Part shown: in pieces, positions 5,297 through 21,420 of the stretch
How the letters are laid out: each line of letters opens with the position of its first letter
Position numbering within the stretch: position 1 is the first letter of the stretch
Assembly: GCA_902621725.1 (NCBI GenBank)
Contig: CACNND010000002.1
Coordinates: 49 to 64,048, forward strand
Direction of reading: 5' to 3'
DNA: 64,000 bases
From: an uncultured Alphaproteobacteria bacterium
Lineage (GTDB): Bacteria > Pseudomonadota > Alphaproteobacteria > HIMB59 > GCA-002718135
Program-made: the position numbers and the translations under genes
The notes under the pieces: model-generated
What the model saw: only the letters and a program-made list of their open reading frames with translations
What the model was told of the DNA's origin: nothing
Database searches by the model: none

Positions 5297-7089
5297 TAGT
5301 AAACTCTTTTTTTAGGTGGTATTGGTTGAACATGATTAGTTAGGGTATTCATATGAACACCTCTGGAACCCATTCTCACATCTCCGTTATCGTTTAACCA
5401 GGCTAAAGAGTGAACTAACCAATTATTATCATCTCTTTCTTTATAATCTTCTCTTGCATGTGCGCCTCTACTTTCAGTTCGATTTAACGCAGAATGAAGA
5501 GTAACTTTTGATTGTACCATTAAATTGTGTAACTCTAAAGCTTCGACCAAGTCCGTATTAAAAATTAATGATTTGTCTTTAATATCTATGTCATCCATTG
5601 AGCTTTCAACTTTTGAATATTCTTCAATACCTTTTGATATGAGATCATGTGTTCTAAATACTGCGCATTTTTGCTGCATTATATGTTGCATGGAAGTACG
5701 AAGCTCTCCAGTTGTAGAGTTTCCTTTGCTGTTTCTAATCTTATCAAATCGCTCAATAATATTATCTGTTTTTGATTGATTAATTTCAATTTTTTTAGAA
5801 TTTGGTTTTACTTTTTCTTTACATGTTAGACTAGCTGCTTTGCCAAAAACAACAAGATCGATTAATGAATTTGTTCCTAATCTATTAGCACCGTGTACAG
5901 AAACACATGCAGCTTCACCAACAGCCATTAAACCTTCACATACATTATCTGGATTTTCATTTGTTGGCCTTAGAACTTCTGTTCTATAATTTGTCGGTAT
6001 ACCACCCATATTATAATGAACTGTTGGAAGAACTGGTATTGGATCTTTAGTTAGATCAACTCCAGCAAATATTTTTGCAGTTTCTGAAATACCAGGTAAT
6101 CTTTTATGTAATGTATCAGCATCAATGTGCTCAAGATGAAGGAGCACATGATCGGCATTATCTCCACAACCTCTATTTTCACTAATTTCAATAGTCATTG
6201 CTCGACTTACTACATCCCTTGATGCTAGATCTTTTGCATTTGGAGCATATCTTTCCATAAATCTTTCACCATCACTATTAGTTAAATATCCACCTTCTCC
6301 TCTTGCTCCCTCAGTGATTAACACTCCTGCACCGTAAACACCAGTTGGATGAAACTGAATAAATTCCATATCAGAAAGAGGCAAGTTCTGTCTTAAAGCC
6401 ATTGCACTACCGTCACCAGTACAAATGTGAGCGCTCGTGGATGAAAAATAAGCTCTTCCATATCCACCAGTAGCTAGAATTGTTTGATGAGATAAAAACC
6501 GATGGATTGATCCATCCTCTAAGCACCATGTTACCACACCAATGCAATTACCTTGATCATCAGAAATTAAATCTAAAACAAAATATTCAATATAAAATTC
6601 TACATTATTTTTAAGTGATTGCTGATAAAGTGTATGGAGTAAAGCATGTCCCGTTCTATCAGCTGCTGCACAAGCTCTCATAGCAGGAGCTCCCTCGCCA
6701 TTATTGGTTAAGTGTCCACCAAAAGGTCTTTGATAGATCTTGCCATCATCTGTTCTACTAAAAGGCATGCCATATTCTTCAAGTTCAATTACTGCTTCAG
6801 GGGCTTTAGAACATAAGTATTCAATTGCATCTTGATCACCAAGCCAGTCGGAACCCTTAACTGTATCATACATGTGCCACTTCCAATTATCTTCACCCAT
6901 ATTACCTAAAGCTGCTCCAATTCCACCTTGTGCTGCAACAGTATGACTTCTTGTCGGAAACACTTTTGATATACAGGCTGTTTTTAATCCAGCTTCAGCA
7001 CACCCAAGCGTAGCTCTCAGTCCTGATCCTCCAGCTCCAACAACTACAACGTCATAGTGGTGATCAATAATTTTGTACGAATTAGTCAT
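5296..7089 (-). CDS. sdhA: succinate dehydrogenase flavoprotein subunit
   Basis: 597 aa with the [12 protein letters not shown] fold and [10 protein letters not shown] (covalent FAD histidine). Confidence 0.95.
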
Positions 7090-7419
7090 CTAAAAAACCA
7101 TTCTCACTAAATTAAAAGTAATTAAAATCATGATAGAATATATAAGATAATTTATTGATACTTTAATGAATTTGGCTGTTTTTTTCGATGTGACATAATC
7201 TTCAATAATTGTTTGCAGTCCTAATTTTGAATGAAGAAGCATAGATTGCATCATCACAAAAAATAAGAATGCATTAAAATAGGATTGAAAAAAAATTTCT
7301 ATTTCAGAATACGTCATCTTTGATAATGATATTGCAGAATATATAAACCAAAACGTCAATGGTATTAAAATTGAAGCAGTAATTCTTTGGGTTAACCATT
7401 TAAGAGCATAATTTTTCAT
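7090..7419 (-). CDS. sdhD: succinate dehydrogenase membrane anchor subunit
   Basis: 109 aa with three hydrophobic helices. It sits between sdhC and sdhA and overlaps sdhC by 4 nt. Confidence 0.8.
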   Translation of the reverse strand: MKNYALKWLTQRITASILIPLTFWFIYSAISLSKMTYSEIEIFFQSYFNAFLFFVMMQSMLLHSKLGLQTIIEDYVTSKKTAKFIKVSINYLIYSIMILITFNLVRMVF

Positions 7420-7796
7420 GCAAAATACCAGACAACTAAACTAGAAATTAAAGTTAAACATATAACAGCATAACCAGATTTATATACTTGAGATAATTCC
7501 ATTCCAATACCGAATGACCAATATAATTTTCTGCATCCATTAAATAAATGGTAAAAAATACCGACAGTCCAAATCATTAGAGCTAGTTTAAACAAAATAC
7601 TCTTAGAAAGACTTTCAAAATAAATATAAAATTCAGGACCAAAACTAATCAAAAAAAACCAAATTGAAATTAATAGTGCGCCCACACTTAATCCTATTCC
7701 AGATATCCTGTGAAAAATTGAAAATACTGCTGTCAGTACTCTTTTGTGAATAGATAGGTGAGGTGATAATGGTCTATTATCAGTCATTTTTTTCAT
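7416..7796 (-). CDS. sdhC: succinate dehydrogenase cytochrome b556 subunit
   Basis: 126 aa with RPLSPHLSIHK, the typical SdhC N-terminus, and three TM helices. Confidence 0.85.
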   Translation of the reverse strand: MKKMTDNRPLSPHLSIHKRVLTAVFSIFHRISGIGLSVGALLISIWFFLISFGPEFYIYFESLSKSILFKLALMIWTVGIFYHLFNGCRKLYWSFGIGMELSQVYKSGYAVICLTLISSLVVWYFA

Positions 7797-7984
7797 ATTT
7801 TTTATGTTTCATAAGTAAGTATTTTTCCTTAAATTTCAAAATATTAATGGTTTAGTTATTTTTTCTTACTATCATGGAAGTTTGTAAAATGTTGATAAAA
7901 AGTGCTAAATTTTATGAAAATGGACGAAATTTTATGCCAAATTTAACTAAAAATCTTGAATTTTAATTTGATAGATATTACTCT

Positions 7985-8131
7985 TCATAAGCCGGATAAT
8001 ACTCGTTTCTTAGCTTCGGAGGAACGCCAAGAATTTTTAATTATCTTACCCGCCGTTTGATAATTAGTTGAGTTTCTTATTCTAGAGAGGTGTCTGCCAA
8101 GGTACAAACTAGTTTTAGAGTCCGGCCTACC
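7985..8131 (-). ncRNA. candidate structured RNA, unclassified, between the hydrolase stop codon and sdhC
   Basis: A GC-enriched island in an otherwise very AT-rich 330-bp spacer. A closing helix pairs 7989-7996 with 8121-8128. A hairpin pairs 8007-8014 with 8026-8033 around an 11-nt loop. Each helix has one G-U pair when read on the minus strand, which becomes an A-C mismatch on the plus strand, so the minus strand is the likelier transcript. Confidence 0.35.
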
Positions 8132-9116
8132 TTAAATTTTTATTAAAAAATTCTTCCATCTTTTTAGAATATAGTTCTGGAAATTTAAACATAGCATCAA
8201 CATGATAAGAGTTTTCAACTAACCAAAACTCAGCATTAATTTTATTTTGATTTGTATATTCTTTAAAATAATTAAAATGTCTTGTTAAGATTCTTGTATC
8301 AGAGTCTCCATGAGTAAAAAAATAGTATTGTTTCTTTGATAATTTTTTAGCTGGAGATAATTCTCTCGGATCTATTCCAGTTAAGATTTTTCCAGCTAAA
8401 CTTACAGCCGGTCCAAATTCAATGGCTAGACCATATCTTGCTATTTCATCTTTTAAAATCATATTAAATTCAGCAAGTGAACTATCGGCCCATACAGCCA
8501 GTATTTCTGGTTCTGCATTAGCTGCAAAAATAGATGTACTTGCACCAAGAGATATTCCATGTAATCCAATACTATTAGACTTGAAACCAATTTCTTTTAA
8601 AAAGTCAAACGCACCAAGAATATCATTATACGACTTTAATCCTAAATCATCGTAACTACTCACAGTATCACTTTGGCCATAATTTCTTAAATCTATAGTA
8701 AGCACATTAAATTTTTTATTAACTAAAAAACTTGCAATTAGATTAGGTTCAGACTTACATTTACCATTTGGACTTATGCCATGCGTTACAATTATAATTG
8801 GTCTATTTGGAAAATAGTTAAACAGCCATCCATTAATCTTGATGTCAGAGTCACGAGATTGAAAATATACATCTTGCCATTCATTTAAATAATAGTCTTT
8901 AAAGTTAAAATTTTCTCTTACTTTTTGTCGTGCAAGAATTAAATATTCATGAGAGTCAACTGTTGTGCTCCATGAATTAGGAAGAGATCCTTCGTGCAAA
9001 CCACAAGTTGGATCTATTTTTAAAATTTGATAAGCAACATAAAAACCTGCAGTAAAATAAACTACTATTAATAAAACTACTGTACTTACTAAAAACCTGA
9101 TTATGTATTTCATCAA
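8127..9116 (-). CDS. membrane-anchored alpha/beta-fold hydrolase
   Basis: 329 aa with an N-terminal TM helix, the nucleophile elbow GISLGAS (GxSxG), an HG oxyanion motif (VTHGISPNG) and a C-terminal D...H. Confidence 0.7.
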   Translation of the reverse strand: MMKYIIRFLVSTVVLLIVVYFTAGFYVAYQILKIDPTCGLHEGSLPNSWSTTVDSHEYLILARQKVRENFNFKDYYLNEWQDVYFQSRDSDIKINGWLFNYFPNRPIIIVTHGISPNGKCKSEPNLIASFLVNKKFNVLTIDLRNYGQSDTVSSYDDLGLKSYNDILGAFDFLKEIGFKSNSIGLHGISLGASTSIFAANAEPEILAVWADSSLAEFNMILKDEIARYGLAIEFGPAVSLAGKILTGIDPRELSPAKKLSKKQYYFFTHGDSDTRILTRHFNYFKEYTNQNKINAEFWLVENSYHVDAMFKFPELYSKKMEEFFNKNLR

Positions 9117-10147
9117 TCTGGTTTTACTATAGTCATTTCATACAATCTGCTAGCAGTTCTTTTAAATTCTTCTTCTAGAGTAATAATATTATTTAAAGAA
9201 TTTATAGGTTTTGAAGCTAAAATTACAATTGAACAATTATTTTCATATAACATATCAATTAATCCAATAAATCTTCTGCATGAGTCTTTTTTTTGATTAT
9301 CAAATTCAGGAACATTTTTTAAAAATACCAACTTAAATTTATCTGCAATATTTTTGTAATCTTCATTACCTAGATTTACCTCACAAAGATTTTGAAAATC
9401 TATCATCATTAGATTTGATGTACATTTATCAAACTCTATTTCACGACTTTTAGATTTAATTTTTATAGTTGTTAAATGAGAGGGATCAACAAAACGATTA
9501 AATAATTTTTCAAATTCACTTGTTGTATCAGTTGTTATAGGTGTGAAATATGTCTTTGATTGATTTAACGTTTGTCGACGAAAATCAGTTTTAATACTAA
9601 TATCATAAAGGAAAAAATTTTCTTTAATTAAATCAATAAATGGTAGAAAATCATTTCTTTGTAAACCATCTTTATATAAATCATCTGGATGAAAATTTGA
9701 TGAAAGTAATATAAATATTTTATACTTTGAAAAATAATTAAATATTTTTTTAATGATCAATGCGTCAACAATATTAAAAATATGTAACTCATCAATAAAT
9801 ATTATTTTGAAATCTCTGCTTAAATTCTTAACATAATTTTCAATTGCAAGCTCTTTATTATCTGAAGTTTTTACCTGATCATGAATTTCATTCATCAAGT
9901 TGTTAAAATGAATTTTTTTTCCAATTTTGCTATTTTGATAAAACAAATTTAATAAAAATGTTTTTCCCGTTCCTACTTGGCCATAAAGATAAATTCCTTC
10001 AAAAATTTTATCTTTAAAAAAAAGCTTAGTTTTACTAAAAGAAGACCATACATTATTAGCTTTTTTTAAAAATTCAATTTGATCAACATTCTTTTTAATA
10101 AAATTATTTTCTACAAAACTATTGTATTGGTCGATAACATTAAACAT
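9113..10147 (-). CDS. zapE: AFG1/ZapE-family ATPase
   Basis: 344 aa with Walker A GQVGTGKTFL and Walker B IIFIDELH. The length and layout match AFG1-like ATPases. Confidence 0.85.
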   Translation of the reverse strand: MFNVIDQYNSFVENNFIKKNVDQIEFLKKANNVWSSFSKTKLFFKDKIFEGIYLYGQVGTGKTFLLNLFYQNSKIGKKIHFNNLMNEIHDQVKTSDNKELAIENYVKNLSRDFKIIFIDELHIFNIVDALIIKKIFNYFSKYKIFILLSSNFHPDDLYKDGLQRNDFLPFIDLIKENFFLYDISIKTDFRRQTLNQSKTYFTPITTDTTSEFEKLFNRFVDPSHLTTIKIKSKSREIEFDKCTSNLMMIDFQNLCEVNLGNEDYKNIADKFKLVFLKNVPEFDNQKKDSCRRFIGLIDMLYENNCSIVILASKPINSLNNIITLEEEFKRTASRLYEMTIVKPD

Positions 10148-10272
10148 TATTTTTTACCTAAATATTGTTCTAATTTTTTGAATGTCTCAAGTTCAGCGCT
10201 TGTAAGTTTATTTTTTTCTTTTTTCTTTTTCAAACGCTTATATTCTTCTATAAGATAATTTAAACTTTCCAT
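10147..10272 (-). CDS. 41-aa charged micro-ORF (MESLNYLIEEYKRLKKKKEKNKLTSAELETFKKLEQYLGKK)
   Basis: My own translation; it falls below the ORF-track length cutoff. It fills the spacer between the MFS gene and zapE. Its TAA stop overlaps the zapE ATG as TAATG, which suggests translational coupling. Confidence 0.3.
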   Translation of the reverse strand: MESLNYLIEEYKRLKKKKEKNKLTSAELETFKKLEQYLGKK

Positions 10273-10279
10273 TATTTTT

Positions 10280-11473
10280 TTACTCATGCTTATAAACTAT
10301 AGGTAAAACTGCAGATACAATAATCATAATTGAGCTAATTAAAAAGATTGCTACTATTCCAAAGCCCCAATCTATTGCATATCCAAAAATTACTGGAGAT
10401 AAAGCACTAGCAAATACTCCAACCCCATGAAGTAATGCCTTCGCAGTACCAATACTTTTTACTCCATAAATTTCTGCCCAAAGAGAACCCATAAAGGGGG
10501 CAGATAAACCAAGGTTAAAACCAAAAAGTGACATATAAATTACAAATGCAAAATAACTATCAAAAAAGAAGAGAATAAAAACACTAATAAGTAAAGGTAC
10601 TAAAACAAATGGTATTGCTCTTTTAGTATTTATTTTGTCAATCAAAGGGCCGCCAATTATCAATCCAAAAATTGAACACAAACCAAATATTAAATATCCA
10701 TCTCCAAGCATTTCTATTGACCATCCTTTAGAGTCAAAAATAAAAATCTGATGAAAAATTAAACCAGTTCCAATAAATGGAGAACTTAAAGCTAAAGGAA
10801 AATAAATGAAAAAAATTCTATCAGTAAGGATTTGAGTAATTGTCCAGTGCTTGTGTACTTGTTTATCTTTTATATTTTTTAGAAGAGTCAAATCTCTTTT
10901 CTTTTGATCAAAAAGTAAAATAGACACGAAAGGTATTAACAAAAGCAAGCTTAAAGCTGAATAGAACCATATACTTTTGAAATCTAAAAAAGTTTGTAAA
11001 CTAACCACTAATTTAGGTATAAGCATTATTCCTAACATTCCCCCTAAAGTAGCTACAGATATTGCTTTACCTCTATCAAGAGAAAAATATCTCGCCATAG
11101 ATGTAGAACCTGCATGTGTCATTGCACCCTGCCCGAAAAATCTCAGTAAAAATATAATTATAAAAAGATGAATAATATTATCAAAAATAAAATTAAAACC
11201 AATGCATGCTAAAGCTAAACCAATTATTATCAAAGTGGAATAAATTCTTAATTCAATTTTATCTATTAGTTTAGCAAAATTAATAAATAAAAATGAACTA
11301 ACCAGTGTTGCTAAAGCATATACAAATCCAAATTGACCATCAGTTAAATTATAAAAATTACGGATGTCTTCATTGAATAGCGCGATATAAAAAGTTTGCC
11401 CATAACTTCCAAAAAATACAATTACAAAACCATAAATTAATAGATAAGGGTCATGAAAAAAAAATCTTTTCAT
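10280..11473 (-). CDS. MFS-type transporter
   Basis: 397 aa with about 12 predicted hydrophobic helices split by a central charged loop (QKKRDLTLLKNIKDKQ). Confidence 0.75.
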   Translation of the reverse strand: MKRFFFHDPYLLIYGFVIVFFGSYGQTFYIALFNEDIRNFYNLTDGQFGFVYALATLVSSFLFINFAKLIDKIELRIYSTLIIIGLALACIGFNFIFDNIIHLFIIIFLLRFFGQGAMTHAGSTSMARYFSLDRGKAISVATLGGMLGIMLIPKLVVSLQTFLDFKSIWFYSALSLLLLIPFVSILLFDQKKRDLTLLKNIKDKQVHKHWTITQILTDRIFFIYFPLALSSPFIGTGLIFHQIFIFDSKGWSIEMLGDGYLIFGLCSIFGLIIGGPLIDKINTKRAIPFVLVPLLISVFILFFFDSYFAFVIYMSLFGFNLGLSAPFMGSLWAEIYGVKSIGTAKALLHGVGVFASALSPVIFGYAIDWGFGIVAIFLISSIMIIVSAVLPIVYKHE

Positions 11474-11479
11474 ATATTC

Positions 11480-12151
11480 TCAAAGGATTTCTTTTATATT
11501 ATTTAAAAGTTTCACCATTTTATTTTGATTTATTCGTCCAGTATTAACATTTCTTGGACTTGGGTGATAACTTCCAACTAGAAACTTATTGTCTGGTAAA
11601 ATATTTTTTGAACCATGAGAGAAAATAAAATCTTTGTTTTTAATTTGATAGTATTGTTTATAATAATTTAGACAAGCATCATAACCAATTTTTCCTAGAG
11701 CAACTATAACCCGAACATTCTTTAAATAACCTATTTCTTTATTAAAATAATTAAAACAAGTTTTTAATTCTTTTGAAGTAGGCTTGTCTCCAGGTGGCAC
11801 GCACTTAAGTGCAGTTGTTAAATACATATTTCTTAATCTTAAACCATCATCTTTATTTATAGAATTTGGTTGATTTGCAAATCCAGTTTTATATAAACAA
11901 GAAAATAAGAAATCTGCAGATTTATCACCTGTAAATACACGACCCGTTCTATTTCCTCCATGAGCAGCAGGGGCAAGACCTACCATTAATAATTTTGCAT
12001 TTTGATCTCCGTAACCAGTAATAGGCTTACCCCAATATATTTGATCAATGTATTGTTTTCTTTTCTCTTTGGCAATTTTTTCACGGAAATTAACTAAGCG
12101 TTCACACTTAGTGCAATGAATTATTGTTTTATTTAAATTACTTAATGTCAT
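11480..12151 (-). CDS. uracil-DNA glycosylase superfamily protein (family 4/5 type)
   Basis: 223 aa with CxxC near the N-terminus, motif A GLAPAAHGGNRTGRVFTGD and motif B HPSPRN. Confidence 0.8.
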   Translation of the reverse strand: MTLSNLNKTIIHCTKCERLVNFREKIAKEKRKQYIDQIYWGKPITGYGDQNAKLLMVGLAPAAHGGNRTGRVFTGDKSADFLFSCLYKTGFANQPNSINKDDGLRLRNMYLTTALKCVPPGDKPTSKELKTCFNYFNKEIGYLKNVRVIVALGKIGYDACLNYYKQYYQIKNKDFIFSHGSKNILPDNKFLVGSYHPSPRNVNTGRINQNKMVKLLNNIKEIL

Positions 12152-12184
12152 TTGGAAAATATATATTTATATTACAGCTACGTG

Positions 12185-12745
12185 ATGAATGAAAGAGCTA
12201 AAGCCATCTTAGATTTTTGTTTTGTTGAAACAAAAATTGATCAATGGTTTCAGAAAAATAATGATTTTGATAACATTTTAAAAGATAACTTTATGAATGA
12301 TTATTTAAAAGCAATAAACAATGATTATGATAATTGGATTGATAGCGCAGAAGAGTGTGTTGCTCTTGTAATACTACTTGACCAATTATCGAGAAATTTT
12401 TTTAGAAATAGTTTCAAGGCATATTCACATGATACAAAATGTATAATGATTGTTAAGGAAGCAATTAAAAAAAAATATTTGGAAAATTTAAGTCATGACA
12501 AAATTCATTTTTTATTATTACCTTTAATACATAGTGAAAATATAGTTGATCATAATCTTGGACATAAACTAGTAGATAAATATTTAAAAGAGCACCCAGA
12601 ATATCCAAAAATAAAAAAAGCTTGGAATGATCATTCTGTTGCAATTAAGAAATTTGGAAGATATCCCCATAGAAACAAAATATTGAAAAGAAAATCAACT
12701 TCTATGGAAGAAAATTTTTTAAAACAACCAAATAGCTCTTGGTAA
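12185..12745 (+). CDS. DUF924-family protein
   Basis: The LDQLSRNFFRNS core and overall pattern are typical of DUF924. The track ORF starts at a TTG at 12152, abutting the divergent gene. The first ATG (12185, MNERAK...) is the more plausible start. Confidence 0.7.
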   Translation: MNERAKAILDFCFVETKIDQWFQKNNDFDNILKDNFMNDYLKAINNDYDNWIDSAEECVALVILLDQLSRNFFRNSFKAYSHDTKCIMIVKEAIKKKYLENLSHDKIHFLLLPLIHSENIVDHNLGHKLVDKYLKEHPEYPKIKKAWNDHSVAIKKFGRYPHRNKILKRKSTSMEENFLKQPNSSW

Positions 12746-14755
12746 TTACCTAAGGCTAGCTTCTATATTACCACCATCTACAGTTATAATATTGGCAGTT
12801 GTTTTTTTTAATAATGTTTGTGCAAAAAAAGCTTGAGCAACATCTTCTGCCAAAACTTGAGTTTCAAGTAAATTATTTGAAAGATATTTCTGTTCACTTA
12901 GACCTCTTGCATTTGCTCGTTGAGAAATTAGTTTTTTTGTTAATAAACCACTTACAATTCTATCAGCGTTTATACCATTGACTCTTATATTGTATTTTCC
13001 ACATTCAAGCGCATATTGTTTCATTAAAAAAAGAGTGCTCGATTTTGCAAGCCCATATGGACCAAAGTTTTTTCCAGGATTTATAGCTTGTTTTGATAAA
13101 TTATATAAAATCAATCCCCCAATATTTTGCTTCTTCATGGCTTGTACAACTAATTGTGAAATATTTTGATGGGATAAAAAATTTATATCATAACTATTTT
13201 TGATTATTTTTGAGTTTACACTTTCAATTGCACCTTGAAATGCCATACCAGCATTTGAAATTAGAATATCTATGCCACCAAAATTTAAAATAATTTTTTC
13301 AAATTCTTTTTTTAGTTTTTTAATATTTGTAAGATCAACATTGATTGAGTAACAATCTTTAAGATTATTCTCTTCTAAAAGTTTTTTGTTATATTTTTTA
13401 TCAATTAGAATTATGTTAGCTCCTTCGTGCTTAAATTTTTTTGCTATGGCCATTCCAATAGTGCCTCCACCGCCAGTAATAATGACATTATTGCCTTCTA
13501 AAGATTGAGGTTTTGCAATATTTAATTTAGCTCTCTCTAGTGGCCAATACTCCATCTTGAAAATATCATTCTCTTTAATTGATCTAAATTTACCAATTTT
13601 TTCAGCATCTAGAATCGATGATGCCATAGACTTAAATACATCATACGAAATTTTTTGATCTTTTAATTTTTTACCAATTGATATTATTGCCAATCCTTCT
13701 AATACAATAATTCTAGGTAGTGGATCAGTGGTTTTACAATTTTTTACTAAATTTTTATTTTTTAAAAAATATTTTTTATATTCTTTACAATATTTATTAA
13801 TTTCATGATTTATTTTATACAAATTATTTTTATCGATGACTAAAATTTTTGATTTTATTCTAATCACATGATCCGGTGTAACTGGTCCTTTATTTAATAG
13901 AGTTTTAATATTTTTTGTAGAAGCGATACTTGTATCATCATATTTGCTATGAAATTTGATAATCCATTTATCATTTGAATGATAAGAAAAACTTCTTCTT
14001 ATAGAAAGAATTAAATCTGAAATATTGAAATTTAATTTACTATTATATTTCTTTAATTGAATTTTATTTTTAGAGATATATTTTTCTACATCACTTACAA
14101 ATTTAATCATTCTTTCGTAGCTTTCTTTTGCATTATTACCAAAGGTGAATATACCGTGATTGATTAGAGCTAGTCCTTCGATATTTTGATTTTTATTGAA
14201 AACTTTTAAACATTCTTTTGCTAATGAAAAACCTGGCATAATATAAGGTACAATTCCAATTTTATTTCCAAATATCTTTTTTATTAAAGCTTTAGAATTT
14301 GGCTGATTTAATATACTTAAAAAAGCATTGGAATGGGTATGATCTACAAATTTAAACGGTAAGTAAGCATGTAAAAGAGTTTCAACCGATGGATTAGGTG
14401 AACCAGAATTAATTAGATTTGATCTAAGGCAATTAACCATATCATTATCATTTAATTTTGTTAATTTTGCTGTTTCTAAAAGGGGGTCTAGGTATAAACC
14501 AGGCATACCATTTTCATTTAAGTTAGACATATCCCATCCACTTCCTTTAACATAAATAAGTTTTACATTTTTATTAAATAAATCTTTTCCTTCTGATTTT
14601 ACTGATGAATTTCCACCACCATGTAAGACGAGTTTAGTGTTATTCCCTAACAAATGTGTTGTATAAATTCTTAAAGCAAGATCCCTACTGACATTTTTCT
14701 TTTTATAATGATTTACATATTTTTGTGCAGTCTTATTGTTCCATAGACTTTTCAT
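12746..14755 (-). CDS. bifunctional class II aldolase / short-chain dehydrogenase (YuxG/RhaEW-like fusion)
   Basis: 669 aa. The N-terminal half has LHGGGNSS, the Zn-ligand motifs VDHTHS and INHGIFTFG. The C-terminal 250 aa form a classical SDR with TGGGGTIGMAIA, NAG and the catalytic YGLAK. Confidence 0.8.
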   Translation of the reverse strand: MKSLWNNKTAQKYVNHYKKKNVSRDLALRIYTTHLLGNNTKLVLHGGGNSSVKSEGKDLFNKNVKLIYVKGSGWDMSNLNENGMPGLYLDPLLETAKLTKLNDNDMVNCLRSNLINSGSPNPSVETLLHAYLPFKFVDHTHSNAFLSILNQPNSKALIKKIFGNKIGIVPYIMPGFSLAKECLKVFNKNQNIEGLALINHGIFTFGNNAKESYERMIKFVSDVEKYISKNKIQLKKYNSKLNFNISDLILSIRRSFSYHSNDKWIIKFHSKYDDTSIASTKNIKTLLNKGPVTPDHVIRIKSKILVIDKNNLYKINHEINKYCKEYKKYFLKNKNLVKNCKTTDPLPRIIVLEGLAIISIGKKLKDQKISYDVFKSMASSILDAEKIGKFRSIKENDIFKMEYWPLERAKLNIAKPQSLEGNNVIITGGGGTIGMAIAKKFKHEGANIILIDKKYNKKLLEENNLKDCYSINVDLTNIKKLKKEFEKIILNFGGIDILISNAGMAFQGAIESVNSKIIKNSYDINFLSHQNISQLVVQAMKKQNIGGLILYNLSKQAINPGKNFGPYGLAKSSTLFLMKQYALECGKYNIRVNGINADRIVSGLLTKKLISQRANARGLSEQKYLSNNLLETQVLAEDVAQAFFAQTLLKKTTANIITVDGGNIEASLR

Positions 14756-15834
14756 ATCTCTTTTAAACCTTTTATTGATTTTTCATTAGCATCAATAACA
14801 CCTTTTTCAGTAATTAACTTAGAAATATATTTTGATGGAGTAACATCAAAAGCATAATTGACTGATTTAGAATTTTCAGGCACAATTTTTATAGTACTAA
14901 TTTTTTTGTTTTCATCAATACCTGTCACTTGACTTACTTCTTTAGGATCTCTTTCTTCAATAGGAATATCAGAGATACCATTACGAACATTAAAATCTAT
15001 ACTTGATGTTGGAGCTGCTACATAAAATGGAATATTGTTATCAGCAGCCGCTAAAGCTTTCAAATAAGTTCCAATTTTATTACATACATCACCAGTTAGA
15101 GTTGTTCTATCTGTTCCAACTATACACATGTCTACTAAATTATGTTGCATAAGATGACCGCCCACATTATCAACAACAAGTGAGCAGTCAATGTTCTCAT
15201 TAATTAGCTCCCAAGCAGTTAAATTAAATCCTTGATTCCTTGGTCTGGTTTCATCTACCCATACATGTATTGGTATTTTATTATTATTCGCTTTAAAAAT
15301 TGGTGCTAGAGCCGTACCCCATTCCACTGCTGCTAACCAACCAGCATTACAATGAGTTAAAATATTTATTTTGGATTTTTTTTTATCATAAATTTTTTTT
15401 ATCAATTCCAGTCCATAATCTCCTATATTACTACAAGCTTCAATTTCATCCTGCCTTATCTTTTTAGCCATATTTAGGATGTGGTTAGCACGATCTTCTT
15501 TATTAATATCTTTTATTTCCAAATTAATTTTATTAATTGCCCAACTAAGATTTACTGCAGTAGGTCTTGATTTTAAAAGAAAGTCCGATGATTTACTTAG
15601 ATACTCTAATGAGGGGTCCTCTAATGCGGCAATATACATACCGAAAGCAGCAGCGACACCAATTAAAGGCGCACCTCTAACTTGCATCTCTTTAATAGCA
15701 AATTCAACATCATTAACTGTATTTAATGTAACTATTTTTAATTCATGAGGAAGGAGTCTTTGATCTATAATTTTTACTTTCTGATTGTCTGATTCTATCC
15801 AAATGGTTGTAAAGTTTGAACCATTAACAAGCAT
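14752..15834 (-). CDS. mtnA: S-methyl-5-thioribose-1-phosphate isomerase family (MtnA/DrdI-like)
   Basis: 360 aa with VRGAPLIGVAAAFG, THCNAG and VGTDRT...GD motifs of the eIF-2B-like MtnA family. Overlaps the aldolase-SDR start by 4 nt. Confidence 0.85.
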   Translation of the reverse strand: MLVNGSNFTTIWIESDNQKVKIIDQRLLPHELKIVTLNTVNDVEFAIKEMQVRGAPLIGVAAAFGMYIAALEDPSLEYLSKSSDFLLKSRPTAVNLSWAINKINLEIKDINKEDRANHILNMAKKIRQDEIEACSNIGDYGLELIKKIYDKKKSKINILTHCNAGWLAAVEWGTALAPIFKANNNKIPIHVWVDETRPRNQGFNLTAWELINENIDCSLVVDNVGGHLMQHNLVDMCIVGTDRTTLTGDVCNKIGTYLKALAAADNNIPFYVAAPTSSIDFNVRNGISDIPIEERDPKEVSQVTGIDENKKISTIKIVPENSKSVNYAFDVTPSKYISKLITEKGVIDANEKSIKGLKEI

Positions 15835-16673
15835 TACTTCTGCTCAACGCCAGTTAGAGCGCTAACAAACTGTTTTTGAAACATGTAAATAAATACTAAA
15901 GGTAAGAATCCTGCAATAGAAGATGCAGCAAACTGTTGATTCCATACCATTTCATATTCCGTTGAAAATCTTCCAAGTGTTACCTGTATTAAATGAAGTT
16001 CGGGTGATGGTGCTGCTATCAAGGGCCATAGGTAAGATTCCCATTGGAAAACAAAAAGTAGTAATCCAGCACCAAGAGTAACTGGTACAGAAAGAGGAAG
16101 ACAAATTCTCCAAAAAACACCAAACCAACTTAATCCATCAACTCTAGCTGCTTCTATCAGTTCTTTTGGGATACCTAAAAAAAATTGCCGATAAAGAAAA
16201 ATAATCAACCCATTTGCTAACATAGGAATTATTAATGCATAAAAAGTATCAAACCATCCTATTTGTCTCATCATTTTAAATAAAGGAATTGCAATTGCAT
16301 CGGCAGGAACAGCAAAAGAAAGAAGAACAAAACCAAAAATGATATTATCTCCCTTAAATCTAAATTGAGCAAATGCAAAACCAGCCATCGAATTTATTAG
16401 TAACCCTCCAGCAACAGAGGTTATGGAAACAAAGAATGTGTTTAACATCGAACGACCAAAATCATTTTCAAAAATTGCAAAATACGACTCTAATGAAAAA
16501 CCAGGCAAAAAAGCTCTAATATTTATTGGAGCAAGATCTCTAAAAATATCAGAGTTACTTTTGAATGAAGCAGCTACACCCCACCAAAAAGGAAGAATTG
16601 TTATAATTAAACCAATAAAAATAACCAGGTACCATAAATAAACTGACCATTGTCTTTTAAAATGCATGATCAT
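15834..16673 (-). CDS. carbohydrate ABC transporter permease
   Basis: 279 aa, 6 TM helices, EAA loop EAARVDGLSWFGVFWRICLP (MalG-like). Confidence 0.85.
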   Translation of the reverse strand: MIMHFKRQWSVYLWYLVIFIGLIITILPFWWGVAASFKSNSDIFRDLAPINIRAFLPGFSLESYFAIFENDFGRSMLNTFFVSITSVAGGLLINSMAGFAFAQFRFKGDNIIFGFVLLSFAVPADAIAIPLFKMMRQIGWFDTFYALIIPMLANGLIIFLYRQFFLGIPKELIEAARVDGLSWFGVFWRICLPLSVPVTLGAGLLLFVFQWESYLWPLIAAPSPELHLIQVTLGRFSTEYEMVWNQQFAASSIAGFLPLVFIYMFQKQFVSALTGVEQK

Positions 16674-17569
16674 TTAACTTTTATACCTTCGTTTTTTTCG
16701 CTTAAAAATAATAACTGCAAACCTATAACAATTAGTGTTATTACAGTAAGGATAGTAATTATTGAAAGTGACCTTCCCCAATCCTGATAATAAAAACCAC
16801 TTCTATAACCTTCATAAATTAAAACATTCGTAGATTGTAATGGGCCACCTTTAGTTAAAATAATCATAGGCACCATTAAAACAAAATTTGCTGCTGTATC
16901 TGCTACGAAAACAAAAAGTATTGTTCTTTTTAATTGTGGGATCGTAACATATCTAAATTTTTGAAAAGGTGTTGCACCATCAATCTCTGCAGCCTCGTAG
17001 TATTGTTTAGGAATATCCTCCAGTCCTGCCAATAAGAACAGCATCCAAAATGCTACACCTTTCCAAGTAGCAATTGCAATTATGCACCATAAGGCTTGAT
17101 TTTCACTAACCAAGAAAGGTTGTGGAGGAATTCCAAAAAATCCAATTAGACCATTAATTAATCCTTGGTTTGGATCTAACATTAGACCCCAGATAATTGT
17201 AGCAATAGGAAGTGCAATCCCAATTGGTAGTAGATAAAGTGATCTAATAATTCTTATAAATTTTGACTTCCTCATCAATAATAATGCTAATCCCAATGAC
17301 ATAGCGATTTGAAGAGGGTTGATAATAATTGTTAAAAAAGCAGTTATTTCAAGAGATTTCCAAAATATTTTATCATCAAATAAATATTGATAATTTTCAA
17401 ACCAAACAAAAATTCTTTTTTCAGCACCACCACTAAAACTGGTGTAGATAAGGCTTTCCCAAAAGCCAATAAAAATAGGGTAAAGTTTAAAAGCAATAGT
17501 TCCAATAAGAGCTGGTGCTAAAAAAAGGTATGGAACCATCCATTGTCTTTTAAAAAAATTCATACTCAA
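16670..17569 (-). CDS. carbohydrate ABC transporter permease
   Basis: 299 aa, EAA loop EAAEIDGATPFQKFRYVTIPQL (MalF-like). Confidence 0.85.
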   Translation of the reverse strand: MSMNFFKRQWMVPYLFLAPALIGTIAFKLYPIFIGFWESLIYTSFSGGAEKRIFVWFENYQYLFDDKIFWKSLEITAFLTIIINPLQIAMSLGLALLLMRKSKFIRIIRSLYLLPIGIALPIATIIWGLMLDPNQGLINGLIGFFGIPPQPFLVSENQALWCIIAIATWKGVAFWMLFLLAGLEDIPKQYYEAAEIDGATPFQKFRYVTIPQLKRTILFVFVADTAANFVLMVPMIILTKGGPLQSTNVLIYEGYRSGFYYQDWGRSLSIITILTVITLIVIGLQLLFLSEKNEGIKVK

Positions 17570-17613
17570 TTAAAAGATATCACGCGGTAATAACCGCGTG
17601 ATAAAAATATTTA

Positions 17614-18873
17614 TTATTTATAACGTCTCATAGAAGATTCAATTCTAGACTCAGCATCTGCTAAAACAGAAGCTGGGTCTCCACCATTTCTTATATCTTC
17701 AAAACTAGTGTTAACTATTTCTTCAAATTCTAAGAAACCAGGTGTTCTTCCTCTAGTAGCACAATGGTTTGCTGACTCATATGTTGCAAGATTCATAACA
17801 ATTCCTGGGAAGTTGTTAAATTTCGGATCTTCAGCAACATGGAGTATTGCAGAGTTGTGTGCTGGTAAAGAATTGTGCTCTTCAACATAATGAATTGCTA
17901 CTTCTGGACTTGCAGTTAAATATCTAACAAGTTTAGCAGCATCATCTTTTTGTTTTGAATAATTCCAAACACCAATGTGCCAGCTATTACAACCAGTAAC
18001 AACTTTTCCACCTTCAAAATAAGGGTGAAGAGCTACACCATAATTAAGATCTGTATCAGCCCATCTTCCATTATTCCAAGATCCACCAACAAATATTCCA
18101 ATTTTACCTAAACCAAATAACTCATGAGTTTGGTCAGGTCCTACTCCTTTTGGAGAAATATTAGAAGTGTTGTGGATGTCATAATAAAACTGACCAGCTT
18201 TCATCCATCCATCATTTGTTAAGCAGCCCTTAACAGATAGTCCGCCCTCACAAACTCCAGATCCACCACCAGCAGATTCAGGTAGTGCTTGTAACTGATA
18301 ATATCTACTAATTTGATCAAAAATGAATCCATGGATACCATTTGCTTCATCAGTTATTTTTTTTGCACAATCAACTATTTCTTCCCAAGTTACTCTTTCT
18401 GCTTCAATCATTGAAGGCTCAGCGCAACCTGCTTTAGCAAGTAAATCTTTATTATAATAAGTTAGCTGACCAGAGTTATTTAGTGGAGGAGCATACATTT
18501 CTCCATTCCATGAAGCTGCAGCGATACCAGCAGGAGCGAATATTGCATTAACACTAGTGTCTGCAAAATATTGATCCATTGGACCTATCATACCTCTTAC
18601 TGCATATGATGGAACTAAAGGTGCATCAACAAATATGACATCAACATCATCAGCTTGTGCATTTCCTCTTACTTCAATAGTTGCCAGTAAATCTCTAAAT
18701 GGAAATGTTTGGATGTTTACCTCAATGCCTGTTTCTTTTTCAAACGCTTCAACAAAAGGTGTAAGAGGTTCCTCTGCCCACGTTCCAATAAGAAAGTTTA
18801 TTTCAGCTTTTGCACTAGTAACTATGTTACTAAATAAAAAAATAGTGCAAAGGCTTGCTAATATTTTTTTCAT
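17614..18873 (-). CDS. ABC transporter periplasmic substrate-binding protein (family 1, sugar type)
   Basis: 419 aa with a signal peptide (MKKILASLCTIFLFSNIVTSAKA). The size and composition fit CUT1-type binding proteins. It is the first gene of the importer operon. Confidence 0.85.
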   Translation of the reverse strand: MKKILASLCTIFLFSNIVTSAKAEINFLIGTWAEEPLTPFVEAFEKETGIEVNIQTFPFRDLLATIEVRGNAQADDVDVIFVDAPLVPSYAVRGMIGPMDQYFADTSVNAIFAPAGIAAASWNGEMYAPPLNNSGQLTYYNKDLLAKAGCAEPSMIEAERVTWEEIVDCAKKITDEANGIHGFIFDQISRYYQLQALPESAGGGSGVCEGGLSVKGCLTNDGWMKAGQFYYDIHNTSNISPKGVGPDQTHELFGLGKIGIFVGGSWNNGRWADTDLNYGVALHPYFEGGKVVTGCNSWHIGVWNYSKQKDDAAKLVRYLTASPEVAIHYVEEHNSLPAHNSAILHVAEDPKFNNFPGIVMNLATYESANHCATRGRTPGFLEFEEIVNTSFEDIRNGGDPASVLADAESRIESSMRRYK

Positions 18874-18952
18874 TTTATCCTCCCAGATAATTTATTTAAT
18901 TATTATTAACAAATTATAGAACAACAAGGATAATAATTTTATCAACTTTGTG

Positions 18953-18974
18953 ATGACTATTAGTCATATGACTA
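18953..18974. promoter_or_regulatory. candidate operator: ATGACTA-T-TAGTCAT-ATGACTA (three alternating half-sites)
   Basis: Read directly. 18953-18967 is a perfect 7-1-7 inverted repeat and 18961-18974 is a perfect 14-nt palindrome. It is centred in the 199-bp divergent spacer between the SBP gene and the nucleoside hydrolase gene. Confidence 0.35.
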
Positions 18975-19072
18975 AATAATTTATTCTATTAGATGTGTGT
19001 ATAAATATGAAAATATTAGATTTTTTATAAATATTGATATTAATAATTATCAAATGCTGGTAATAATTAATA

Positions 19073-20017
19073 ATGGGACATTTTGAAAAATCATTCTACC
19101 ATGAAAGAGATGACACTAATATTTTGAACCTACTAAAGCCTAGAAAAGGTAAGGTAAGGGCTGTATTAGATACAGACACTTATAATGAAATAGACGATCA
19201 GTTTGCACTTGTGCAAATGATGCTTTCAAAGGATAGAATTAAAGTTGAAGCTATATATCCAGCTCCCTTCTCAATGAATGATAGATCAGATCATCCAGGT
19301 AAAGGTATGGAATTAAGCTATGATGAAATACTAAGATGCCTTGAACGAATAAATATATCACCGGAAGGATTAGTCCATAAAGGTGTAACAGAGTATATTG
19401 GTGCAAAAAAAGAATCCATAGATGCACCTGCTGTTGATGACCTAATTAATAAAGCTAATGCAGGAAGTAAAGAAAATCCACTCTATGTAATTGCTATAGG
19501 AGCAATTAGTAATGTATCGTCAGCTTTATTAAAAGCCCCAGAGATAAAAGATAAAATTGTTGTTGTTTGGCTTGGTGGTAATGCATTGTACTGGCCTCAT
19601 TCCTATGACTATAATTTAAAACAAGATGTAGGTGGCACTCAAGTTTTATTTGATTGTGGTGTGCCTCTTGTAATGGTTCCATGTGCAGGTGTTACTACAC
19701 ATCTAACCTCTACTGTACCTGAAGTTGAAAAGTATATTGAGCCTCATGGTGAAATAGGAAAGTTTTTAGCAATGAGATTTAAAGAGTATAGTAATGATCA
19801 TAAATGTTGGTCAAAAGAATTATGGGATATGGCTGCAGTAGCTTGGGTTTTAGATGAAAAATGGACTCCAACAAATCTAATACCCTCTCCTGTACTATCT
19901 GATAACATGACATGGAGCGTTGATCAAAGAAGACATCCAATCAAAATTGTATCCATGTTAAACCGAGATGCAATTTTAAAAGATTTTGTAGAGAAGTTAG
20001 AAAAATTTAATAGCTAA
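19073..20017 (+). CDS. nucleoside hydrolase-like protein (IUNH fold)
   Basis: 314 aa with the N-terminal Asp cluster LDTDTYNEIDDQFAL, which resembles the DxDxxxDD motif of inosine-uridine-preferring nucleoside hydrolases with a 2-residue insertion. No signal peptide. Confidence 0.65.
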   Translation: MGHFEKSFYHERDDTNILNLLKPRKGKVRAVLDTDTYNEIDDQFALVQMMLSKDRIKVEAIYPAPFSMNDRSDHPGKGMELSYDEILRCLERINISPEGLVHKGVTEYIGAKKESIDAPAVDDLINKANAGSKENPLYVIAIGAISNVSSALLKAPEIKDKIVVVWLGGNALYWPHSYDYNLKQDVGGTQVLFDCGVPLVMVPCAGVTTHLTSTVPEVEKYIEPHGEIGKFLAMRFKEYSNDHKCWSKELWDMAAVAWVLDEKWTPTNLIPSPVLSDNMTWSVDQRRHPIKIVSMLNRDAILKDFVEKLEKFNS

Positions 20018-21292
20018 TTATAATTTTGCTTTCATATTTTCATTTATCTTTGCTGCTTTGATTAAATCATTAATAGATTTGAAAGAATTTGTGTTCTTCA
20101 GCATTTCAATTGCAAGATTAGATGCTTGATATTCGCAATTTGCTCTTACTTTTGTATTTTCTATCCATTCAAAATCTATGTTGTGAGCAAAACCATAAAT
20201 TCTTCGAATTATTTTAGCACCTGCATATGAAATTGTTTCTTCAAAAAGATTTTGCATATACAGTTTTTTTTCTAAAATCATTTTTTTGCTATTTTTTTTA
20301 AAAAGTACTTTTGGGTATGCATCACCATAATTTTCAGTTTCCCACAATTTTATAAATTTCTTTTCAAATTTAATCCAAATAGCTTTAATTATTTCAAGTA
20401 ACCATTTCTTATATTTTTTTCTTTCACCAAATTTTTTTTCGTGACCAGTTTGAGAAAAAAAACTCATTAATAGGTTTGCAATTAGTGCACCAATATCAAA
20501 TCCCATTGGGCCATAAAAAGCAAATTCTGGATCAATTACCTTTGTGTCATTTTTTGTTACCATAATTGAACCTGTATGAAGATCTCCATGTAAAAGAGCA
20601 TCAGTGTTTTTCATAAATTTCAATTTCAGACGACTTATAGAAATTTTTAGTTTTTCATCTCTTTCTATCTTATCCTTCATTTTATTTAAGTAAGGTTTAG
20701 TCCACCTGTTGTTCTTGTTCACTGAATATGGATCGGTAAATATTAAATCCTCAGTAATTTTACAAAGCTCAGTATTTGAAATAAATTTTGTAATTATATT
20801 TTTTTTTGATGCTGCATTTAAATAAAGGTCAGATGTGTAAAACAAAGTTTTTGCTAAATAAGTTGAGATTGATTCTGCAAAACTATTATATTTTATTCCT
20901 TTTATTAATCCATGTCTCATAATTATATGTGGAGATAATTTTTCCATTGTTATAGTACGTAAAACTTCGTCATAATCATAAATTTTTGGAAAATGATTTT
21001 TTGCATATTTTTTGTGAGTATTAAAATATTCATACTCATAATATGAGCGTTTTAGAGTGAGTGGCCAATCTTTCAAAACCCTTAAATAAGGTAAAGGCTG
21101 TTTTAGGCAAATAGAATTATATTTATTTTCAATAAAAAAAACTAGATTTAAATTGCCATCACCTACTTCTTTAACTTCTAACTTTGAAGTATTCTTAAAA
21201 AGTTTTTTTAAATTCCTTTTAGAAATGATAAATTTTTTTAATTCATTTAATTTTAATGGTTTATATTTATTTGGTTTGAATTTGGTTACCAT
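20018..21292 (-). CDS. mtnK: S-methyl-5-thioribose kinase family (MtnK/DrdK-like)
   Basis: 424 aa with EVGDGNLNLVF and HGDLHTGSIM, both hallmark MtnK motifs. Confidence 0.85.
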   Translation of the reverse strand: MVTKFKPNKYKPLKLNELKKFIISKRNLKKLFKNTSKLEVKEVGDGNLNLVFFIENKYNSICLKQPLPYLRVLKDWPLTLKRSYYEYEYFNTHKKYAKNHFPKIYDYDEVLRTITMEKLSPHIIMRHGLIKGIKYNSFAESISTYLAKTLFYTSDLYLNAASKKNIITKFISNTELCKITEDLIFTDPYSVNKNNRWTKPYLNKMKDKIERDEKLKISISRLKLKFMKNTDALLHGDLHTGSIMVTKNDTKVIDPEFAFYGPMGFDIGALIANLLMSFFSQTGHEKKFGERKKYKKWLLEIIKAIWIKFEKKFIKLWETENYGDAYPKVLFKKNSKKMILEKKLYMQNLFEETISYAGAKIIRRIYGFAHNIDFEWIENTKVRANCEYQASNLAIEMLKNTNSFKSINDLIKAAKINENMKAKL

Positions 21293-21345: not shown

Positions 21346-21420
21346 GGTCTCGTGGTGAAATGGATATCACACGTGTCTTCGGAACATGGATTTGGGGTTC
21401 GAGTCCCTACGAGACCGCCA
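21346..21420 (+). tRNA. tRNA-Arg (anticodon UCG), CCA encoded
   Basis: Hand-folded cloverleaf. Acceptor stem GGUCUCG/CGAGACC, D stem GUGA/UCAC with a GG loop, anticodon stem CGUGU/ACAUG with loop CUUCGGA, 4-nt variable loop, T arm UGGGG-UUCGAGU-CCCUA, discriminator G plus CCA. 75 nt. Confidence 0.9.

Follow-up and report, generated by a model that had tools for sequence, protein, structure and literature searches.

A predicted DHAP-shunt variant for imported 5'-deoxynucleosides in a SAR11-like bacterium

Why would a marine bacterium encode a kinase and an isomerase of methylthioribose metabolism in one cluster with a transporter, a nucleoside-hydrolase-like enzyme and an aldolase fused to a dehydrogenase? 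The question is raised by seven genes at 12746-21292 of a 64,000-nucleotide stretch of DNA from an uncultured alphaproteobacterium (contig CACNND010000002.1, positions 49 to 64,048), the whole of which we call the window. They comprise mtnK, mtnA, a gene for an aldolase fused to a short-chain dehydrogenase/reductase (SDR; hereafter the fusion), a solute-binding protein (SBP) gene with two permease genes, and a nucleoside-hydrolase (NH)-like gene. We think it probable that together they encode a catabolic, import-coupled variant of the dihydroxyacetone phosphate (DHAP) shunt acting on 5'-deoxynucleosides. Our results concern this one 64-kb window and have no bearing on the remaining genome; gene identities rest on profile scores, and all further steps of the pathway on linkage and analogy.

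In the pathway that we propose, the SBP and the two permeases would import 5'-methylthioadenosine (MTA) and/or 5'-deoxyadenosine, or related 5'-modified nucleosides, with an ATPase encoded outside the window, and the cytoplasmic NH-fold enzyme would strip the base to give adenine and 5-methylthioribose (MTR) or 5-deoxyribose. MtnK would phosphorylate C1 of the sugar, MtnA would isomerise the 1-phosphate to a ketose 1-phosphate, and the aldolase domain of the fusion would release DHAP and 2-(methylthio)acetaldehyde or acetaldehyde, the aldehyde being converted in place by the fused NAD-type SDR. The cell would gain carbon, purine and reducing power, and its own S-adenosylmethionine (SAM) by-products would be cleared by the same enzymes. 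Parts of this scheme have precedents: an mtnK-mtnA-ald2-permease operon enables E. coli to grow on MTA and 5'-deoxyadenosine (PMC10986504, PMC12632272), and the kinase DrdK accepts 5-deoxyribose and MTR, not ribose (PMC6079011).

An earlier reading, made from the sequence alone, had placed the seven genes here, and all were recovered as open reading frames (ORFs) where it put them, with the motifs that it quoted present in the translations (GDGNLNLVF and HGDLHTGS in MtnK, VDHTHS and NHG in the fusion). It had also considered the case of a SAR11-type host. The window has a G+C content of about 30%, and its closest relative among the comparison loci, which we label L001 to L152, is a marine single-cell genome labelled 'Alphaproteobacteria' (L003), with cluster proteins 89-99% identical. 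On syntenic contigs the housekeeping neighbours are 75-86% identical. The host is best described as SAR11-like, because some proteins on these contigs are named Pelagibacteraceae by NCBI. Homologues are plentiful in marine metagenomes, including Tara, and several clusters at 90% identity have hundreds of members.

The kinase, the isomerase and the fusion enzyme

By their profile scores, both well above equivalog cut-offs, the first two enzymes are firmly identified. The MtnK/DrdK-type kinase (20018-21292, minus strand) scored 479 bits against TIGR01767 (cut-off 275), and the MtnA/DrdI-type isomerase of 5-methylthioribose 1-phosphate or 5-deoxyribose 1-phosphate (14752-15834, minus strand) scored 408 bits against TIGR00512 (cut-off 279) in NCBIfam profile searches, which upholds the names first given to these genes. 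In the PDB both are nearest to solved structures of the same two enzymes: MtnK to 2pyw (E 3e-112) and 2olc, the MtnK of B. subtilis (E 1e-67), and MtnA to 1t9k (E 1e-74) and 2yrf/2yvk.

The third enzyme, of 669 aa (12746-14755, minus strand), is a class II aldolase domain followed by an SDR domain (Pfam Aldolase_II and adh_short), the fusion that had been proposed, and it matches NF006192, 'bifunctional aldolase/short-chain dehydrogenase', over residues 1-669 (786 bits, cut-off 639). The aldolase domain is RhaE-type and spans roughly 410 aa. Its acid-base Glu and three His (E125, H139, H141, H200) are invariant in homologues at 29-64% identity, as are the SDR tetrad (N525, S554, Y567, K571) and D452, which closes the second Rossmann strand. 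An Asp ending this strand in SDRs marks a preference for NAD over NADP. Both domains look active, and the fusion is predicted to cleave 5-(methylthio)ribulose 1-phosphate or 5-deoxyribulose 1-phosphate, the aldehyde then being processed with NAD. An exact-sequence look-up of the fusion returned no record.

Is this the aldolase of the known shunt? The sequence-only reading had likened it to Ald2/DrdA, and here it has to be refined. We recovered the E. coli mtnK-mtnA-ald2-permease locus, whose Ald2 is FucA-like (NF005984, 366 bits), and compared it with the aldolase domain of the window: BLASTP gave E = 1.2, with only the PSxE...HxH catalytic motif aligning. The isolated domain matches PRK08324 fusion models only, and its sole relative in the PDB is an uncharacterised protein, 3m4r. 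The fusion is therefore a paralogue of the RhaEW family, the one characterised branch of its superfamily, and not an orthologue of Ald2/DrdA. The analogy to the DHAP-shunt aldolase holds, since the domain has the fold together with the catalytic Glu and His, and with MtnK and MtnA above their cut-offs the kinase-isomerase-aldolase logic stands on comparative-genomic evidence.

The family relationship opens the question of whether the fusion is itself a RhaEW-type rhamnulose-1-phosphate aldolase/lactaldehyde dehydrogenase, in a cluster that degrades a 6-deoxyhexose or its glycoside. It shares with RhaEW (YuxG) the two-domain architecture, the PRK08324 superfamily and the conserved catalytic residues; some sources name homologues 'rhamnose utilization protein RhaD', and the RhaEW model TIGR02632 still gives 394 bits. 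This score is nevertheless under the equivalog cut-off of 567.75, whereas the fusion exceeds that of NF006192, a separate family. RhaEW orthologues were reported always inside rha loci (PMC3870299), whereas the fusion occurs with mtnA and either mtnK or a gene for an MtnP-like phosphorylase, and rhaA, rhaB and rhaM are absent from the cluster and the scanned window. We thus consider a rhamnose-type function very improbable, and keep as predicted substrate a 5-deoxy or 5-methylthio pentulose 1-phosphate.

The aldolase-like domain might also be an MtnB-type dehydratase that feeds canonical methionine salvage, since class II aldolase fold and metal ligands are common to MtnB, and the later enzymes could be encoded in the rest of the genome, which lies outside our data. 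We give this scarcely any credence. E. coli Ald2 matches MtnB models, but the isolated domain of the window gave no such match at E <= 0.001; the domain's sole characterised relatives are aldolases (PMC3870299); and a fused NAD-type SDR would be pointless after a dehydratase step. The gene content of the window also speaks against it. Annotation covered 30 ORFs scanned at 31.6-61.4 kb, together with 8.1-12.7 kb and 21.4-31.6 kb, which were judged via syntenic loci with housekeeping Pfam labels; ORFs at 1.4-7.8 kb, at 61.5-63.7 kb and of <100 aa lie outside it. In the cluster and these annotated parts there were no candidates for MtnB, MtnC, MtnD, MtnN or MtnP, so that the canonical salvage set of MtnB, MtnC (or MtnW/X) and MtnD was not found, and the annotated parts likewise held no mtnC, mtnD or mtnE. 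This agrees with the absence of mtnB, mtnC and mtnD that had been noted at the outset. Among the 30 scanned ORFs there was no class II aldolase, ARD, PNP_UDP_1 or MalK-type ATPase.

If the fusion is a shunt aldolase, what would its SDR domain do with the aldehyde? RhaEW cleaves rhamnulose 1-phosphate and oxidises the freed lactaldehyde with NAD+; it has no activity with NADH, and its cleavage is NAD+-dependent (PMC3870299). Since the SDR of RhaEW oxidises its aldehyde, the C2 product in the window's pathway may be an acid instead of an alcohol: by this analogy the aldehyde would most likely be oxidised, yielding 2-(methylthio)acetate or acetate and NADH, and reduction to the alcohol would be the alternative. 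In R. palustris, 2-(methylthio)ethanol is converted aerobically to methanethiol in an unidentified step (PMC5893883). Scavenging of organic sulfur had been suggested as the purpose of the cluster. The idea is possible but unsupported, because no gene of the cluster releases or reuses the methylthio group.

We surveyed the fusion family with one genome per species, which returned 80 loci. In SAR11-like genomes the fusion is always downstream of mtnA, in two architectures: the form of the window, with mtnK, NH and transporter genes, or an MtnP-like phosphorylase-mtnA-fusion form, in which the phosphorylase scores just under the MTAP cut-offs. Beyond this group, the order mtnK-mtnA-(x)-fusion occurs in two genomes of Sulfurimonas, and fusion-mtnA in one metagenome-assembled genome of the Burkholderiales. 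Outside SAR11 and Sulfurimonas we found no conserved neighbours of the fusion, its contexts being heterogeneous (Nitrospina, Polyangia, sulfur-oxidising Gammaproteobacteria and others). On this survey the link between fusion and mtnA is recurrent, though not demonstrably family-wide, because about 65 of the 80 loci have no mtnA within 10 kb.

Some neighbours in these loci deserve mention in their own right. In the mtnP-type loci (L002 and L004-L009, about 5389-14358), iolC-, iolB- and class II FBP-aldolase-like genes precede the MtnP-like gene, mtnA and the fusion, which are followed by a gene for a 139-aa unknown protein, a TauE-family gene and a cystathionine-beta-lyase-like gene. In Polyangium (L035, 8321-9880) the ORF directly upstream of the fusion resembles S-adenosylhomocysteine hydrolase, as judged by eye; if real, this would be a further tie of the fusion family to the metabolism of SAM by-products.

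The importer and the nucleoside-hydrolase-fold enzyme

The transport genes encode a periplasmic SBP with a signal peptide (17614-18873; SBP_bac_1/8), permease 1 of the UgpA/MalF type (16670-17569) and permease 2 of the UgpE/MalG type (15834-16673), all on the minus strand and both permeases with BPD_transp_1 matches. The combination of a family 1 binding protein and a pair of permeases of the MalF/G or UgpA/E type makes this a CUT1-type ATP-binding cassette (ABC) system, as had been proposed. The best NCBIfam matches are UgpA for permease 1 and GlcU and UgpE for permease 2, all under cut-off, and the best PDB match of the SBP, 5ci5, has only E 2e-23.

The main new evidence on the cargo comes from the genomic company of the transporter. 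Homologues of the SBP (30-67% identity) are encoded in operons that also contain a pair of permease genes and an NH-fold gene, and frequently genes for a PfkB kinase, a MalK-type ATPase and a LacI regulator; a plasmid of Devosia neptuniae (NZ_CP104964.1) carries an annotated example of CUT1 and NH. Among loci with >=1.3 kb of upstream and >=4.5 kb of downstream flank, an NH gene lay within 9 kb of the SBP family member in 24 of 24. The cargo is therefore more likely to be a nucleoside than a free pentose, and this signature of a nucleoside uptake and hydrolysis module points to a family of nucleoside importers, with the SBP of the window as a predicted receptor for nucleosides, more precisely 5'-deoxynucleosides. 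The sequence-only reading had left the choice between MTA, 5'-deoxyadenosine, MTR and 5-deoxyribose; the pairing favours the nucleosides and makes free MTR less likely.

Import of free MTR or 5-deoxyribose, with the NH handling intracellular nucleosides only, would have several points in its favour. CUT1 systems are typically sugar carriers and the best PDB relatives of the SBP bind sugars or glycosides, MtnK requires the free sugar, and bacteria with a Pfs-type nucleosidase turn MTA and 5'-deoxyadenosine into the free sugars, MTR and 5-deoxyribose, which they then excrete (PMC12632272). Some drd clusters contain sugar transporters, for which import of this kind was proposed (PMC6079011), and a sugar-type ABC system adjoins mtnK-mtnA on pSymB of S. 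meliloti. We hold this possibility to be improbable nonetheless: the invariable NH pairing is hard to explain for a cargo without a base, and the partners found elsewhere, PfkB and LacI, suit nucleoside catabolism.

The transporter family offered further observations. The pSymB system of S. meliloti, a cultured bacterium, is of the CUT2 type and divergent from mtnK-mtnA, with no aldolase gene adjacent (L152, 6201-12348). A collection of plasmids yielded no cultured carrier of the full set of seven genes, only this Sinorhizobium mtnK-mtnA with a CUT2-type ABC system and the Devosia NH with CUT1. ADP-ribosylglycohydrolase-like ORFs, recognised by eye, adjoin NH and CUT1 modules at two loci (L138, 148-2156; L116, 9882-11966), and a contig of freshwater type has two NH-fold genes in tandem after an ABC ATPase gene (L122, 6036-7954). 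A 4.76-Mb genome has an SBP-permease-permease-NH-ATPase operon with proteins 67-68% identical to those of the window (L088, 1-9333). An accumulation of transposase genes of the IS110, Tn5 and IS4 types lies ahead of this operon, which suggests horizontal movement of the module.

The NH-like gene (19073-20017, plus strand) encodes a cytoplasmic product whose match to IU_nuc_hydro (PF01156) is partial, in the central part of the protein (61.7 bits, cut-off 34.2). Its AlphaFold model (pLDDT 81.8, pTM 0.87) superposes over its full length on nucleoside/riboside hydrolases, which make up all of the top 50 PDB matches listed (TM 0.56-0.73), at only 14-20% identity to solved NHs. With the group I enzymes (IU-NH, RihA/B/C) it has in common the fold, the cluster of Ca2+-ligand Asp residues (D33, D35, D41, D42 and D252, invariant in alignments including RihC) and the equivalents of Asn166 and Asp241, which are also invariant. 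It differs from them at three places. The DXDXXXDD motif is present with a two-residue insertion (DTDTYNEIDD). The position of the group I catalytic His is taken by Trp251, and by Trp across the whole subfamily. Finally, Tyr173 and Asp179 occupy the positions of Asn158 and Glu164, which in E. coli RihA hold the ribose O5' (PMC2898832), so that the group I combination of catalytic His and O5' ligands is not found.

The second of these two positions may be a mark of specificity. In our alignments the position of RihA Glu164 is Asp in every mtn-linked NH of both lineages that have such genes, within the motifs YDYN, YDFN or EDYN in the window and its relatives and DHN in the unrelated enzyme of L132. 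It is Glu in stand-alone NHs, in those linked to ABC genes only, in those linked to PfkB, and in RihC. The 120 closest homologues comprise 106 with Glu and 14 with Asp, and all but two of the Asp forms fall in the closest clade. The change from Glu to Asp fits a pocket altered for a 5' substituent, only two independent events lying behind the pattern, and the loop that bears Tyr173 and Asp179 is modelled at low confidence. We predict that the enzyme is a nucleosidase for 5'-deoxynucleosides.

A distant lineage has the whole set as well. Two metagenome contigs of a high-G+C organism (L132 and L133) carry RpiR-mtnA-mtnK-NH-SBP-permease-permease-fusion in one co-directional block. Their NH is a canonical IU-NH of another subfamily than that of the window, their fusion belongs to the NF006196 subfamily, as in Sulfurimonas, and their SBP shares 39% identity with that of the window. 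Different family members were thus put together into this gene set on two independent occasions, which speaks for a single pathway and against adjacency by chance. On comparative-genomic evidence, the coupling to import proposed in the sequence-only reading holds, and its proposal that an NH-fold enzyme takes the place of Pfs/MtnN as nucleosidase fits this recurrence and the pairing of SBP and NH in all 24 loci.

Organization and variation of the locus

The genes had been described as joined by junctions of 0-4 nt. This applies to four of the six junctions, including permease 2, whose stop overlaps the start of mtnA by 1 nt; the SBP and permease 1 are separated by 44 nt, and the SBP and NH genes by a divergent spacer of 199 nt. 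Since NH and mtnK are convergent, with zero gap, and SBP and NH divergent, the cluster forms three transcription units. The gap after the SBP gene contains a terminator-like hairpin (17578-17603, minus strand), with an 11-bp stem including 6 G-C pairs and a T-rich tail; it is a consensus match only, in a region with 6 terminator-like sites against 3.4 expected from shuffles, and may be an attenuator that keeps the binding protein in excess. Promoter matches in the region were no more numerous than in shuffled sequences, and a search of the intergenic regions for riboswitches or other known RNAs gave none at gathering or E <= 1 thresholds. The SBP/NH spacer holds a perfect palindrome, ATGACTAtTAGTCAT, at 18955-18969, with a third half-site just 3' of it. 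As an operator it was ruled out, since L003, L001, L087 and L102 do not share it; even between the window and its closest relative, L003, the spacer differs throughout.

The cluster occupies a chromosomal slot between asd/tRNA-Arg and DUF924/UDG whose content varies among relatives. The full set was found in the window, L001, L003 and L100-L102, and L087 has a variant in another flank with no mtnK visible. Five contigs (L092, L096, L103, L106 and L110) have NH and ABC genes, with or without a visible mtnK, and no mtnA or fusion. In two loci labelled Pelagibacteraceae (L085/L086, 281-3357) the slot reads DUF924, NH, tRNA-Arg, acetyltransferase and then asd; an NH homologue 64-66% identical is thus alone there, and the NH gene persists without mtn or ABC genes. 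DNA alignments locate the change precisely: L092, L096 and L106 match the window, at about 84-95% nucleotide identity across the aligned segments, to base 15833 and resume at 12744-12747, so that the missing piece of about 3.09 kb (12746-15832) is exactly the mtnA-fusion pair, and its borders coincide with the stop codons of permease 2 and DUF924. In L097 a piece of the fusion, 97 aa long, is left. In L096 the NH is split into two ORFs (13-946 and 1090-2091) and the SBP ORF is truncated to 333 aa, which could be decay after the loss of mtnA and fusion, or sequencing error. Genomes without the cassette may draw mtnA and fusion from an mtnP-type locus elsewhere.

The cluster had been called an island. 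A tRNA-Arg(TCG) gene, outside the pathway, does flank it (21346-21420, plus strand; ARAGORN and Rfam), but it stands in the same slot whether or not a relative has the cluster, and the locus carries no integrase. A tRNA-linked integrative island was ruled out on these grounds. Since the tRNA is present regardless of the cluster and no integrase accompanies it, the variation is one of gain or loss of modular cassettes, and the locus is not a classical island.

This modularity is also the basis for the view that two modules merely lie side by side, the ABC system and NH for general scavenging of ribonucleosides as a source of bases and ribose, and MtnK, MtnA and the fusion for housekeeping disposal of MTA and 5'-deoxyadenosine made by the cell itself, import not being the main source of substrate for the shunt. 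The best argument for it is the existence of variants with NH and ABC genes, with or without mtnK, from which mtnA and the fusion are missing. NH and ABC genes are moreover widespread without mtn genes, usually with a PfkB kinase; the NH stands alone in the same slot in L085/L086; in other SAR11-like genomes no transporter lies close to the MtnP-like gene, mtnA and fusion; and the shunt acts as a housekeeping function in R. palustris (PMC5893883). Because NH and ABC genes occur without mtn genes, the import module and the mtnA-fusion cassette can indeed work apart. That they do so in the window is nevertheless unlikely in our view, if far from negligible. Here translational coupling ties mtnA and the fusion to the permease genes, the distant lineage keeps all seven genes in one co-directional block behind one regulator, and in two lineages mtn linkage tracks the change from Glu to Asp at the O5'-ligand position of the NH. 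Profile searches found no ribokinase-type gene accompanying the module in the cluster, and ribose from ordinary nucleosides would therefore be without a local outlet.

Several observations weigh against an import-coupled shunt for 5'-deoxynucleosides, our preferred reading. Contigs that have mtnK, NH and ABC genes without mtnA and fusion exist, and other SAR11-like genomes have, at the same locus, NH and ABC genes without mtn genes or the NH alone. The NH of L138 is of the Asp type, yet there is no mtn gene on its 5.3-kb contig. A comparison of specificity-determining positions in the binding proteins of mtn-linked and other systems gave nothing convincing. No importer ATPase was found in the annotated parts of the window: the cluster has no cognate MalK/UgpC-type gene, and the sole ABC ATPase found in the window adjoins ccmB. 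Since homologous operons include an ATPase gene, that of this importer may lie elsewhere. The aldolase domain is remote from the proven aldolases of 5-(methylthio)ribulose 1-phosphate and 5-deoxyribulose 1-phosphate, as its comparison with E. coli Ald2 showed, the substrate of RhaE has a different configuration at C4, and most of the surveyed fusion homologues stand away from mtnA.

Relation to known systems and implications

How much of this is new? The DHAP shunt, or 5-deoxyribose disposal pathway, which runs through MtnK/DrdK or MtnP, then MtnA/DrdI and Ald2/DrdA in R. rubrum, R. palustris, B. thuringiensis and extraintestinal pathogenic E. coli, has the same first two enzymes as the cluster and the same logic, in which a kinase, an isomerase and a class II aldolase lead to DHAP and a C2 aldehyde. 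It also lacks mtnB, mtnC and mtnD and, in E. coli and some drd clusters, has a transporter gene in the cluster, as here. The differences are in the parts. The aldolase of the known shunt is the stand-alone, FucA-like Ald2/DrdA, whereas that of the window is a RhaE-type domain fused to an SDR; the nucleosidase is Pfs/MtnN or MtnP, whereas the cluster encodes an NH-fold enzyme; and the transporter is a RhaT/GlcU-like permease, whereas the window has a CUT1 ABC system of a nucleoside-linked family. That family is itself found in operons of Alphaproteobacteria, Actinobacteria and others that pair CUT1 and NH genes, with or without PfkB, LacI and a MalK-type ATPase, and for which we found no characterisation in the literature. 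Their SBP and permeases are 30-67% identical to those of the window and show the same NH pairing. In the window, MtnK, MtnA and the fusion stand in place of PfkB, the cluster contains neither ATPase nor regulator, and the NH has Asp and not Glu at the O5'-ligand position.

The combination had been thought undescribed as a unit. This holds only in part: an import-coupled DHAP shunt was already published for other bacteria (PMC6079011, PMC12632272), and it is the parts that are new in the literature searched. As far as our searches show, these are a RhaEW-family fusion replacing Ald2/DrdA, an NH-fold nucleosidase with an altered O5' pocket, a family of NH-linked CUT1 importers, and the occurrence in SAR11-like bacteria with its cassette polymorphism. 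We found no paper joining 'DHAP shunt' with SAR11 and no account of the aldolase-SDR in connection with methylthioribulose, though fused aldolases may have been mentioned before.

Prochlorococcus exudes MTA (PMC11698098), and a much wider interpretation may be put forward, which we regard as doubtful at present. The NF006192 and NF006196 families would be the missing aldolase-dehydrogenases for 5-(methylthio)ribulose 1-phosphate and 5-deoxyribulose 1-phosphate in a large number of environmental bacteria, among them SAR11-like cells, Sulfurimonas and perhaps Nitrospina. Combined with a CUT1 nucleoside importer and NHs of a new class, specific for 5'-deoxynucleosides, they would let streamlined heterotrophs of the ocean feed on MTA and 5'-deoxyadenosine leaked by phytoplankton, for carbon, purine nitrogen and, via the methylthio-C2 product, also reduced sulfur, for which the lineage has a reported need.

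The proposed pathway, if correct, would give a function to two widespread orphan families that are annotated only as 'bifunctional aldolase/short-chain dehydrogenase', and it would define a family of CUT1 nucleoside importers. It would also reveal an NH-fold nucleosidase tuned to 5'-deoxynucleosides, whereas classical NHs contact the 5'-hydroxyl directly. By-products of SAM would be indicated as cross-fed substrates for SAR11-like bacteria, and the precise presence or absence of the mtnA-fusion cassette in near-identical marine populations provides a natural experiment on the modular assembly of pathways in streamlined genomes.

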